This document shows, piece by piece, positions 18,508 to 47,832 of a DNA stretch of 64,000 nucleotides (position 1 is the first letter of the stretch; each line of letters opens with the position of its first letter). The translations under genes were made by a program, and so were the position numbers. The DNA is from Octopus vulgaris (taxonomy: Eukaryota). Under the pieces are notes generated by a model. The model had not been told where the DNA came from. It saw only the letters and a list, made by a program, of their open reading frames with translations, and did not search any database. The stretch is taken from NCBI GenBank assembly GCA_951406725.2, contig OX597831.1:54250001-54314000 (forward strand). The letters are read 5' to 3'.

Positions 18508-19469
18508 GTGATACACTTCCATGTGGCGGTCCATTACGGGGATTGTGCCGGCCAATAGATTTTAACAACGAGGTTGATCTGGTCCCGCCTGAAAACAAGA
18601 TGGACGATCGTTTTAACTGGCCCACACGTTTCTTTAAGCAAGCTTGTGACTGTCGTGGTAACTATGATGGTTATATGTGTCAGCACTGTGATTATGGATT
18701 TACAGGATCTAATTGCACCAAAAAACTTCGTCGCATTCGCAAAGATTACAGGAAATTAACTAAAGAAGAGAAAGACGAGCTTCTTCGTGGTATATTACTG
18801 CTGAGTGAGACAGAGAGTGATTATGCAGTTTTGGACACCACTGCTTCAGTGGATCCTGCAGTGAATCCAACATTTGTAAATGTATCGGTGTACAACTATT
18901 TAGCTTATTTCCATTACTATGTGGCTAGGAGGACACTTATGCAGCCTATAGAAAAGTGTCAAACGGCAGCCTACGTGCCCGATTTTGCTCACGGAGGACC
19001 GGTGTTCGGTTCGTGGCACCGAGCATATCTCCTACTTTGGGAAATGGAAATAGCAAGAGCCCTGAAGAATCCAACGTTTTCTTTCCCCTATTGGAACTGG
19101 ACTGAATCAGGTAGAAATTGTGATGTGTGCACCAACGATTTTATGGGCCATACACCTGATAACAACAACGGATCACTTGATTCTTTGTCTGTGTTTTCGG
19201 AGTTCTCTGTATATTGCGTACCGAGTTTGGGCGGCTGTGCAGGCTGCGACGTGTCAACACCGAGTGGGAAGATTATTCGACGCCCAGGCAACAACCCTGA
19301 ATATCGCTCACTTCCTCCTTTGAAGGATGTAGAGTTCTTGAAGTCCGTTAAAAACTATGACACTTTACCGTACGACACACGCAGTGGTAATAACAGCTTC
19401 AGAAACCTTTTGGAAGGGTTTGCGAATAGAGATGGACCAACCACCGGTAGAATGTACACTCATAATCAG
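18508..19469 (+). CDS. TYR: Tyrosinase exon A (962 nt): Cys-rich/EGF-like domain, CuA site, second Cys cluster, first CuB His
   Basis: Acceptor tttcag|GT at 18507/18508. Translation: (G)[13 protein letters not shown]...[38 protein letters not shown]...FHYY...[21 protein letters not shown]...PYWNW...CDVCT...SFRNLLEGF...THNQ. CuA His codons at 18912, 18990 and 19017. Donor CAG|gttggt at 19469/19470. Confidence 0.95.
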
Positions 19470-46400: not shown

Positions 46401-47832
46401 TCCAACCGAACACGTTTTGGTTTTTCTCAGACGAGAAAAATTTCTGCCAGGATCTGATGCTGAACACACAGACCAACCGTTGGCTTGCCGTGTCCCCAAA
46501 ACACGCACTGAGAGTAATAAAAATCAAACATCCAGTCAATATCATGGTGTCTGGGGTGATCACTAGTGATGGCGACGTTATGCTTCCATTTATCTTCACA
46601 CACGGCCTCAAACTCAACACGGATGCCTACATCAAGTGCCTGAAGGAGATAGTGCTGCGCTGCGTCAAGAGGGTCGCTGTCAGTTGACACTATGTCTAGC
46701 AACAGGATTCTCCACCATGCCACACAAGCAGGAGAACCCAGCCATGCTGTCAGACAATTTCTGTGACAACATCACCACTAACATCTGGCCACCTAACTCT
46801 CCACACTGCAACCCCTTTGATTATTATGTGTAGGAGGCAGTTGAACGAGAAACCAACAAAACTCCTTGTAACACCAAAGATTAACTGAAGGCAAGGATTA
46901 TGGCAACATTCACCAACTTAAACAAGGAGACCGTCCAGAAGAGTTGCGGAAGATTCCGAAGTCGTCTGGAGGCCGTGGTTGAAACCAATGGCGATTTTAT
47001 TGAATAAATTTACTATTTAATATTTGAAGTTATTTTCATGCAATTTGGGTAAATATATCTGTTAAAATGAGATGTCAGTGTTATTTTCATTTTTGCATAT
47101 ATACATGCACCCTATATATATATATTTCGTTTTTGGATTTGGTTTGCAAGATTCTTTATGTAAGTTCGTGTGTTGAAGCATATTCTGTTGTGTCTAAGGA
47201 GAGTCATTTTCTTTTTGTGCCTTATAATTTAACACACTCACCGGTAAAATTTGCACTTATTCCTTATTTTTATTTTCCTAAAATTTTCGATGCGTCTTGC
47301 AACCTTTTCAATAGTCTTATATATATATATATATATATATATATATATATATATATATATATATATATATATAGAGAGAGAGAGAGAGAGAGAGAGAGAG
47401 AGAGAGAGAGAGAGAGAGAATAAGTACTAGGCTTCCAAAGAATAAGTCCTGGGGGTCGATTTTCTCGACTAAAGGCGGGTACTCCAGCATGGCCGCAGTC
47501 AAATGACTGAAACAAGTAAAAGAGTAAAAATGAACTGAGGTAAAATAAGGAATGTGTTTTCTTTATTTTAAACTTCTCTTTTTTTTTTTTTTGCAGAAAC
47601 TTCGCTCAGTCCAGTTTGGATAATTGTTATTGTCGAAGCTGGTCTTTTACTGCTTTTGCTGGCAATCATCATCGAATTGGCACGCACACGTAAACTCCGT
47701 CCCCAAGCAAGACAAGTGAGTTCCACGTCTGTGCATAACAACGTCACCGCTGACACAGCTGATGAAGAACAACCAATATTCCAGCCAGGAAACCCAACTT
47801 ACAGAACCTATAATGCTGCCGAGAATTCATAG
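18508..47832 (+). CDS. TYR: Spliced gene (5'-partial): membrane-bound tyrosinase / tyrosinase-related protein (type-3 copper protein, TYR/TYRP1/DCT-like); join(18508..19469,37122..37256,39652..39796,47597..47832)
   Basis: All introns are GT..AG with matching phases (1|0|0|1). The joined translation is continuous: EGF-like Cys-rich domain, CuA (H-x25-H-x8-H), CuB (HNQ|VH...DPVFQLHH), APPGH...MVPFFP...LGYDY, TM helix, tail, then TAG at 47830-47832. The symbol is family-level; exact orthology to TYR versus TYRP1/DCT is untested. Confidence 0.9.
19780..21570 (-). mobile_element. Cluster of RLE-LINE 3' fragments (19780-20655, 20750-21010, 21290-21570) interleaved with (TATG)n
   Basis: ORFs 19984..20352 ([27 protein letters not shown]...[19 protein letters not shown]) and 20460..20657 ([13 protein letters not shown]). 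Confidence 0.85.
21570..21880. repeat. (TG/TATG)n followed by (TAGG/GGGA)n microsatellite
   Basis: Seen directly. Confidence 0.95.
22380..22740 (-). mobile_element. Diverged RLE-LINE C-terminal fragment
   Basis: ORF 22300..22605 contains [21 protein letters not shown], shared with the other copies. Confidence 0.65.
24130..24248. repeat. (GAT/GAC)n microsatellite
   Basis: Seen directly. Confidence 0.95.
26320..26790 (-). mobile_element. tRNA-derived SINE family B (internal CA/TA microsatellite)
   Basis: Body gaagacacttgc...gtggaactgaa...ggaaccatgtggttg. Other copies at 15105-15275(+), 27235-27625(-), 31735-32045(+), 41330-41690(+), 43695-44072(-), 45113-45480(+), 47418-47525(+) and 60672-61085(-). 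Confidence 0.8.
27235..27770. mobile_element. SINE B (minus) fused to a SINE A body (plus)
   Basis: ...ggaaccatgtgg runs directly into ttctgagttcaaattccgccgaggtcgac at about 27620. Confidence 0.75.
28766..28954. repeat. Compound (GAT)(GGT)(CGT)(GAT)n microsatellite
   Basis: Seen directly. Confidence 0.95.
28990..29390 (+). mobile_element. LINE reverse-transcriptase fragment (domain 0-2 region)
   Basis: [12 protein letters not shown], then a ..[21 protein letters not shown] and EQKGCR-like stretch with stops. Confidence 0.7.
29463..30000. repeat. Tandem duplication of a ~145-bp unit (29463-29607, 29847-29995) embedded in (CATA)n
   Basis: Both copies read atagaaagatagaaaacttcgaattacccgcccttg...cccattttgtattttatatatatacat with few substitutions. 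Confidence 0.9.
30070..31550 (+). mobile_element. 5'-truncated RLE-LINE
   Basis: [36 protein letters not shown] and RPDIVLLD...VEVSC. The 3' UTR is shared with 12590-12772. Preceded directly by (CATA)n. Confidence 0.85.
36500..36800 (-). mobile_element. tRNA(Arg)-like SINE family D upstream of exon B
   Basis: Minus-strand head ggaggcgtatggccgagaggttagagcagcggactcgcggtcgagggatcgttggttcgaatctc. Confidence 0.8.
37122..37256 (+). CDS. TYR: Tyrosinase exon B (135 nt, phase 0-0): CuB site
   Basis: ttttctcag|GTC CAT...TCA GAG|gtaagt. Encodes [45 protein letters not shown], which aligns without gaps to the human TYR CuB region ([29 protein letters not shown]). Missed by the ORF track. Confidence 0.95.
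37600..37900 (-). mobile_element. SINE family D downstream of exon B (third, partial copy at 40870-41057)
   Basis: Minus-strand head ggaggcgcaatggcccagtggttaggacagcggactcgcggtcggaggatcgcggtttcgattccc. Confidence 0.8.
38505..38860 (+). mobile_element. SINE family A, two copies
   Basis: Same head and body motifs as 7146-7545. Confidence 0.75.
39652..39796 (+). CDS. TYR: Tyrosinase exon C (145 nt): C-terminal part of the luminal domain
   Basis: ttctttgacag|CTG...CCG A|gtaagt. Encodes [48 protein letters not shown], matching the TYR-family APIGHN...MVPF.P...LGYDY motif. Confidence 0.93.
39889..40548. mobile_element. Oppositely oriented SINE family A pair (39889-40110 +, 40320-40548 -)
   Basis: + copy: gagttcaaattccaccgaggtcgactttgcctttcatcctttcgg. 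- copy: cccaaaaggatgaaaggcaatgtcaacctcggcgggatttgaactcagaacg. Confidence 0.85.
41706..42340 (-). mobile_element. Non-autonomous Helitron (635 bp) with internal minisatellite
   Basis: The minus strand begins A|TCTATATATATAAA and ends with hairpin CCCGAGCAACGCCGGG, 9 nt, then CTAG|T. These are the canonical 5'-TC, 3'-CTAG, A/T insertion site and subterminal hairpin. Three internal repeats of aatgcattaaaaatg...aatcgtagactcat. Confidence 0.85.
42400..42725 (-). mobile_element. mariner transposase N-terminal (HTH) fragment
   Basis: ORF 42476..42868 contains NINAVYG...QWWFQK...[26 protein letters not shown]...[17 protein letters not shown], the typical mariner HTH region. Confidence 0.75.
45846..47112 (+). 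mobile_element. Decayed DD37D (maT)-type transposon, copy 2, in the last tyrosinase intron
   Basis: WFFSDEKNF...QQDSPPCH...[15 protein letters not shown]. Restoring one frameshift gives 37 residues between the 2nd and 3rd catalytic Asp. Contains internal stops. Left end: tacagaatgcaatgggtaaattgtcacc. Confidence 0.85.
47597..47832 (+). CDS. TYR: Tyrosinase terminal exon D: transmembrane helix and cytoplasmic tail
   Basis: Long poly-T tract then gcag|AA, phase 1, matching exon C. Encodes (K)[77 protein letters not shown]. Hydrophobic stretch at 47614-47673 is followed by a basic stop-transfer segment (RTRKLR). Confidence 0.88.

Follow-up and report, generated by a model that had tools for sequence, protein, structure and literature searches.

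What kind of tyrosinase is encoded by an octopus gene that shares the layout of the vertebrate pigment enzymes TYR, TYRP1 and DCT, and in which pigment cells would it act? The gene lies largely within a 64,000-nucleotide stretch of the Octopus vulgaris genome (assembly GCA_951406725.2, contig OX597831.1, positions 54,250,001 to 54,314,000), referred to here as the window. A sequence-only reading of this stretch had described it as a vertebrate-style, membrane-anchored tyrosinase of the melanosomal type. By its sequence the gene is a gamma-subclass (membrane) tyrosinase, present as a single copy in this genome. In eye cells at the rim of the pupil, the product is probably a type I membrane copper tyrosinase that resides in lysosome-related pigment granules and would start melanin synthesis there; we put the probability of this at roughly 60%.

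The gene comprises five coding exons over ~50.7 kb, separated by introns of 21.2, 17.7, 2.4 and 7.8 kb. Exons 2-5 lie on the forward strand of the window, preceded by its part of the 21.2-kb intron 1 (1..18507). Exon 2 (18508..19469, 962 nt, residues 50-370) encodes the remaining Cys-rich subdomain, the CuA site (H185, H211 and H220), the central Cys cluster, an FRNxxEG motif with E352, and H368 and N369 of the CuB site. Exon 3 (37122..37256, 135 nt, residues 371-415) supplies H372, H394 and H395 of CuB together with an unusual loop (L382/A385/F387), exon 4 (39652..39796, 145 nt, residues 416-463) the end of the luminal domain, and the coding part of exon 5 (47597..47832, residues 464-541) the transmembrane helix (~471-489), a cytosolic tail with EEQPIF (520-525) and NPTY, and the stop codon. 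Each acceptor carries AG, all three internal donors carry GT, and the spliced exons give a single frame of 491 amino acids. This product has no differences from residues 51-541 of an O. vulgaris protein annotated as 'tyrosinase-like' (CAI9736171.1), one from the O. sinensis protein and 27 from that of O. bimaculoides (XP_014779110.1). The sequence-only reading had placed four in-frame exons at these positions in a probable octopus genome, and both points are borne out by the splice sites, the open frame and the protein identity. The gene is not complete within the window, however. A tblastn search for exon 1 inside the 64 kb gave no match, and residues 1-49, with the ATG, a likely signal peptide and C33, C44 and C45 as the first three Cys of the mature protein, are encoded 2.8 kb 5' of the window (G000:C18:54247170-54247317), giving five coding exons rather than four.

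Assembled sequencing runs agree with this model; the RNA status of these runs is a guess of their annotation, and their tissue labels are coded. Exons 3, 4 and 5 stand on one contig in all four runs, from four studies, with both introns skipped and the record coordinates contiguous, so that the predicted junctions 37256/39652 and 39796/47597 are both crossed by spliced sequence. Support for the exon 2/3 junction (19469/37122) is indirect: the exon 3-5 contigs hold a further 1.0-1.3 kb on that side, and the fit extends into it by four letters, the same four with which exon 2 ends. In a fifth run, a contig (X7, L002:1337-1650) spans exon 1 from 164 bases 5' of the ATG and continues into the first letters of exon 2. 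The 3' untranslated region measures at least 1.17 kb (47833..49002, forward strand), as one contig of run X5 extends unbroken over 47600-49002 and pieces of the other three runs also reach 49002. Exon 2 has one match genome-wide, with no tandem paralogue. Single-base differences between the runs at window positions 47730, 47913, 48295, 48501 and 48945, in exon 5 and the 3' untranslated region, are likely allelic.

The encoded protein shares with the vertebrate TYR, TYRP1 and DCT proteins (gamma of Aguilera 2013, type g of Meitil 2025) a signal peptide, ten N-terminal and four central Cys, CuA, CuB, a transmembrane helix and a tail, and is 36% identical to fish TYR over 455 columns. The signal peptide is predicted by alignment: a hydrophobic stretch before QFPR, encoded by exon 1, occupies the same place as in fish TYR. 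The ten N-terminal Cys (C33-C119) and the four central Cys also align with fish TYR, and there are two additional Cys, C200 and C293. The transmembrane helix shows a 19-residue hydropathy mean of 3.0 at 471-489 (predicted helix 469-497), with seven N-glycosylation sequons on the luminal side and a C-terminal tail of ~50 residues. The structure model, with a mean predicted local distance difference test score (pLDDT) of 86.7, matches human TYRP1 best (E 8e-36, TM score 0.86 of the target, over 453 columns), with a bacterial tyrosinase (E 2e-18) and hemocyanin (E 2e-7) ranked lower. The full TYR/TYRP1/DCT layout had been claimed from the outset, and the Cys-rich region, CuA, the central Cys cluster, CuB and the single transmembrane helix all stand. 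The label 'EGF-like' finds no support in Pfam, since only PF00264 was reported in the protein and no EGF domain matched at E<=0.05; assignment of the Cys-rich subdomain rests on the conserved Cys and the fold match. In the tail, EEQPIF followed by [ND]PxY is kept in all five full-length cephalopod proteins, and the membrane-proximal part is variable.

Within the active site the six metal-site His (H185/H211/H220 in CuA and H368/H372/H395 in CuB) occur in the expected spacing, H-(n)-H-(8)-H in CuA and H-(3)-H-(n)-H in CuB. The motif FRNLLEG with E352 follows CuA, and N369 and H394 lie in CuB; E352, N369 and H394 are as in fish TYR. In a recent classification the Asn was tied to tyrosinase activity and FRNxxEG to the chordate and bacterial types (Meitil 2025, PMC11803259). 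Both the conserved Glu (E352) and the first activity-controller Asn (N369), residues of the tyrosinase type, are thus present in the octopus protein. In our own alignment, on which the contrast rests since a review gave no source for such a rule, the last CuB ligand is preceded by His in five of five full-length cephalopod proteins, and Leu takes the H394 position in the TYRP1 and DCT rows. Molluscan alpha tyrosinases share PF00264 with the octopus gene and, unlike it, have no FRNxxEG motif and a short CuA spacing.

The relationships were analysed with 150 homologues from a representative library, to which five alpha proteins were added; 20 of the 149 non-cephalopod matches were looked up by name, and 14 of these received a taxon. 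A catalytic-domain tree with 37 rows unites the five cephalopod proteins (100/100) within gamma (99/98) and puts them, with weak support (85/68), at the gamma base. The alpha proteins form a separate clade (100/99), and the chordate TYR/TYRP1/DCT clade (99/98), within which TYRP1 and DCT make a clade of their own (100/100), leaves the cephalopods outside. Assignment to the gamma rather than the alpha subclass, as originally proposed, is therefore upheld by the tree, the site residues and the fold match. Under the approximately unbiased (AU) test a clade of the cephalopods with DCT was rejected (p 6e-5), and one clade with chordate TYR (vertebrate and tunicate) gave p 0.023. Cephalopods plus spiralian gamma proteins were not rejected (p 0.24), nor was one branch side of cephalopods plus alpha (p 0.17), which requires only one row lacking the EGF region to move. 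On the domain-only tree a clade with all chordate TYR/TRP proteins also escaped rejection (p 0.12); this is contradicted by an ectodomain tree of 27 rows, computed with a mixture model, in which a 98/95 split sets all named deuterostomes apart from a side made up of the cephalopods, Tubulanus, Capitella, Priapulus and flatworms. That tree left out the alpha rows, the one non-EGF row, O. bimaculoides, the second Ptychodera protein and two deuterostome-side rows. A first quick tree had likewise placed the cephalopods among protostomes (0.98), and across the three trees no sister group within protostomes was supported. In pairwise comparison the protein scored 276 bits with TYR, 236 with TYRP1 and 170+45 with a short isoform of DCT, and its best non-cephalopod match was the Tubulanus protein (E 1e-104).

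The octopus gene thus belongs outside the chordate clade, together with gamma tyrosinases of nemerteans, annelids, priapulids and flatworms, and the membrane-type layout is therefore a retained ancestral feature, which makes the description 'vertebrate-style' misleading. The reading that best suits these trees is vertical inheritance without duplication, the gene being a co-orthologue of TYR, TYRP1 and DCT, with one octopus gene where vertebrates have three. Several of the protostome proteins on the same side of the tree, which include those of Tubulanus, Capitella, Priapulus, trematodes and the planarian eye cup, have acidic dileucine-type tails, and they mostly keep Asn before the DP motif, unlike the octopus Phe. 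The proteins of the nemertean Tubulanus polymorphus (P0019, XP_074654258.1) and of Priapulus caudatus (P0022, XP_014674551.1) are full membrane-type gamma tyrosinases; Nemertea had been scored as without this gene type (Rosani 2019, PMC6678240).

The gene is already known in its existence, architecture and eye expression, and the finding as first posed is for that reason not new. The statement that gamma tyrosinases had been considered absent from molluscs was fair for Aguilera 2013, whose accessible parts list no gamma protein for molluscs, and a 2024 paper (PMC11667028) repeats that molluscs have only the secreted subclass. However, Rosani 2019 (PMC6678240) reported a 'DCT' in cephalopods, and not in bivalves or gastropods. 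The O. bimaculoides protein was drawn there with signal peptide, EGF, tyrosinase and transmembrane domains in a figure legend, and its expression was nearly exclusive to retina among the samples. That protein, XP_014779110.1, is the direct orthologue, with the same architecture and the 27 differences over 491 residues given above; the sequence in the supplement matches our P0001 over the part shown. The sections of that paper that we examined contain nothing on exon structure, CuB loop, tail or promoter. Meitil 2025 (PMC11803259) counts one chordate-type (g) enzyme in O. vulgaris, with no accession tied to this gene in the accessible parts. In the decapodiform squid Euprymna berryi, a 2025 cell atlas (PMC12240821) used Tyro-1 (EB00850) as a cell marker only, assigned it to the orthogroup of TYRP1, TYR and DCT, and localised it by in situ staining to a pigmented ring around the pupil. 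Over ~50 codons read by eye, all but one residue of that probe equal the cephalopod protein P0004. Markers of the squid Tyro-1 cluster include Rab32 (76% against 14% of cells), Hps1 and Cd63. Eye expression has been shown by others in the orthologues, in O. bimaculoides retina and the E. berryi pupil ring. What we add is the rejection of the DCT label, a hemocyanin-like CuB loop, a candidate M-box/E-box promoter, and attention to Rab32 and Hps1 in the squid Tyro-1 cells. In planarians a tyrosinase occurs only in the pigment cup and eye pigment is lost on its knock-down, and optic-cup melanosomes have been described; the Schmidtea tyrosinase of our trees falls on the same side as the cephalopods, and we do not assume that it is the gene that was knocked down.

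Upstream of exon 1 we observed a cluster of MITF/TFE-type E-boxes that forms a candidate promoter (L002:1085-1310, G000:C18:54246754-54246979). It contains a candidate M-box with a 10/11 match to the sequence stated in PMC11467436 (C18:54246790-54246799, 380 bases 5' of the ATG) and a candidate palindromic E-box (C18:54246907-54246915, 263 bases 5' of the ATG), with two further half-sites within 500 bases 5' of the ATG. Two GTCAYGTG sites were reached in 2 of 2000 dinucleotide shuffles. For an M-box with a single mismatch the shuffles (34 of 200 contained one) predict 0.18 occurrences per 10 kb, which for 500 bases comes to about 1%; two matches of this quality occur in the 64-kb window. These figures are to be read with motif patterns chosen partly post hoc and a shuffle background of intronic, not promoter, DNA. 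Both of the TCAYGTG sites in the 10 kb 5' of the window fall within this cluster; genome-wide there are 982 pairs of TCAYGTG-type sites 90-120 bases apart, many of those listed lying in one repeat family. A contig over L002:1188-1720 (X18) differs at one position, coming from too close a relative to inform on conservation. The promoter was not covered by contigs from two organisms further removed (X19, X20), and none of 583 candidates from a metagenome scan with exon 1 proved to be a relative. A MITF-family gene is present in the genome, on C4. In the literature that we found, with most subscription journals and some supplements not visible, there is no promoter study of this gene. Behind many of the paired-motif matches is a family of repeats whose inverted ends abound in GTCACGTG E-boxes (for example G000:C1:50326888-50327344), which could seed MITF/TFE-type sites.

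An organelle-resident pigment enzyme of the eye is a plausible role for this protein. The signal peptide and transmembrane helix would make it a type I glycoprotein with the seven sequons in the lumen, and the conserved acidic EEQPIF tail may route it through Rab32/BLOC-3 to lysosome-related granules. There it would bind copper and oxidise tyrosine or 3,4-dihydroxyphenylalanine (DOPA) to dopaquinone, and a MITF-family factor could drive the gene through the upstream M-box and E-box. Of the sites offered in the sequence-only reading for a melanogenic enzyme of this kind, the eye is favoured by the expression of the orthologues; for the ink gland we found no support.

Several observations weigh against a melanin-forming tyrosinase of eye granules. 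The loop before the DP motif has Leu382, Ala385 and Phe/Tyr387 in cephalopods against Val, Ser and Asn in fish TYR and other vertebrates. We compared these positions in 92 homologues, namely the rows with a readable motif among the 148 other library matches, one hemocyanin row having been removed beforehand. None of the 92 has an aromatic residue at the 387 position; at the 382 position Val occurs in 51 and Leu in 6. The last CuB ligand pair is His-His in 84 and Leu-His in 5, so that His-His is the common state and excludes little beyond the TYRP1/DCT lineage. Aguilera 2013 lists Val as the placeholder residue for all gamma groups (Table 1), and the octopus protein has Leu382 aligned to the fish TYR Val, the mapping of placeholder to column being our own; we regard this Val as a descriptive trait that varies within gamma, not a class criterion. 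Hemocyanin units show an AA[FY]DP loop like that of the cephalopod gamma proteins, and three bivalve alpha rows match at the aromatic position. This resemblance may reflect convergence, with a possible shift of substrate preference.

The tail and the squid data also count on this side. An acidic dileucine sorting signal has the consensus [DE]xxxL[LI], and fish TYR, Capitella and flatworm relatives carry motifs of the type ExxPLL (ExQPLL in vertebrates); EEQPIF is acidic and conserved but ends in Ile-Phe, so that the 'sorting tail' described earlier is a non-canonical one. Tyro-1 was detected in only 28% of the cells of its squid cluster, and among the markers listed Mitf belongs to photoreceptor and endothelial clusters and Atp7a to endothelium, neither to the Tyro-1 cluster (PMC12240821). 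Descriptions of the shielding pigment of mollusc eyes mostly name ommochrome, and this is also the pigment of the eye pigment cells that express MITF in chiton larvae. The visible literature, with the limits given above, contained no enzyme assay, metal analysis, localisation or knockout.

A rival possibility is an oxidase of the same granules with shifted substrates: either a diphenol oxidase acting only on DOPA or dopamine, or an o-aminophenol oxidase completing ommochrome synthesis by condensation of 3-hydroxykynurenine. The cephalopod-specific loop and the ommochrome of mollusc eyes would fit such an enzyme. Type-3 o-aminophenol oxidases occur in a sister bacterial clade (Meitil 2025, PMC11803259), one of them at rank 36 in our fold search, and a Loligo skin cluster co-expresses TDO with one of the tyrosinase paralogues. 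Yet E352 and N369 are retained, position 385 is most often Ala (51 of 92), and squid expression marks the pupil ring and not the whole pigmented retina. TDO2, KMO and IDO1 are all absent from the squid markers listed. We think shifted substrates unlikely. A melanosomal tyrosinase of the ink gland or skin chromatophores, the other option raised at the outset, seems improbable to us: ink is melanin-based, this is the sole membrane-type tyrosinase found in the genome, and the ink gland may be missing from the tissues of Rosani 2019, but the orthologue was almost confined to retina among the samples that study tested. Furthermore, Sepia pharaonis ink-sac 'tyr' primers fit two other octopus loci at their stated 160-base spacing, L036 with 11 and L038 with 14 mismatches in 40, and exon 2 is not among the best 8 of 20 primer fits, which in a cross-species comparison is a hint only.

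A zinc-dependent dopachrome tautomerase, as the label in Rosani 2019 implies, is harder still to credit. The architecture is that of DCT, the O. bimaculoides protein was retrieved by BLAST with human DCT, and a review cites a dopachrome-rearranging activity in cuttlefish ink. The label is at odds with our trees and site residues, and we reject it: the clade with DCT fails (p-AU 6e-5), TYRP1 and DCT form their own group inside chordates, the gene sits with protostome gamma proteins (98/95), and the ligand pair is His-His and not the Leu-His of DCT. Cephalopod yellow/DCE genes could perform the tautomerase step, and a convergent tautomerase activity may still be compatible with the sequence. Horizontal gain from a deuterostome, or contamination, would account for the lack of any named bivalve or gastropod gamma protein in our word-limited searches, in which names were checked for only 20 of the 149 non-cephalopod matches; the accessible parts of Rosani 2019 have none either. 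Against this, the gene has four long introns on an 84-Mb contig, its cephalopod orthologues fall into two groups, one of octopods and one with Sepia among its members, and the 98/95 split places the gene with protostomes, so this explanation is largely refuted already and has almost no probability left.

A broader scenario can also be drawn, which we offer tentatively and regard as doubtful. Cephalopods, alone among the sampled molluscs, may have kept a whole ancestral eye-melanin module, in which a MITF-family factor acting on an M-box core identical to that of vertebrates would drive a membrane tyrosinase that Rab32/BLOC-3 delivers to melanosome-like iris granules. The link between M-box and tyrosinase would then be older than the protostome-deuterostome split, camera eyes would have a common inherited pigment-cell program, and the active-site loop would have come to resemble the hemocyanin loop by convergence. 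It also appears that the published 'DCT' label is wrong, and the view that molluscs have only the secreted subclass was still in print in 2024 (PMC11667028). Being single and unduplicated, the octopus gene can stand in well for the ancestor of TYR, TYRP1 and DCT, so that a single assay would inform on which of the activities arose first. In the bobtail squid it offers a single-gene knockout target for asking whether the iris of cephalopods relies on melanin, in melanosome-like granules and under the control of MITF.

The other PF00264 matches in the genome lie on other contigs and are hemocyanin-like or alpha-like, classed by inspection, with only relatives of the C3 cluster represented in the tree. 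That cluster, a tandem array of eight alpha-type tyrosinase matches at G000:C3:140.2-140.46 Mb (L037, L039, L040) with Thr-rich tails in the three that were read, resembles the Argonauta cluster of PMC9635652; in Argonauta argo eight of nine tyrosinases are alpha. L036 (G000:C2:126.08 Mb) and L038 (G000:C3:27.31 Mb), the best octopus fits to the cuttlefish primers, are candidate orthologues of an ink tyrosinase; the main text of the ink proteome paper, the only part searched, does not contain the O. sinensis accession. Hemocyanin-like arrays comprise three tandem copies at C5:96.83-96.92 Mb and two inverted copies at C27:16.19-16.25 Mb, with a more divergent locus at C28:28.65-28.66 Mb (all G000). 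A further locus (L035, G000:C3:412500-416500) has an unusual architecture, a tyrosinase domain followed by Gly/Asp/Tyr/Phe-rich repeats in one frame of 610 residues.

The window also contains remnants of mobile elements. Two related, degenerate stretches of open reading frame at 1029-1596 and 46114-46771 have no Pfam match and look like one transposon family. In intron 1 a weak match to zf-RVT, resembling a long interspersed nuclear element (LINE) and below the Pfam cut-off, lies on the reverse strand at 5783-6265, and similar LINE-like fragments occur near 19984-20789, 22300-22620 and 30507-30896. Intron 4 holds a weak Mos1-type helix-turn-helix match on the reverse strand (42476-42898), also below the cut-off. 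Downstream of the gene, a DDE_3 transposase fragment on the reverse strand (54979-55404, E 3e-14) is likely a Tc1/mariner relic.

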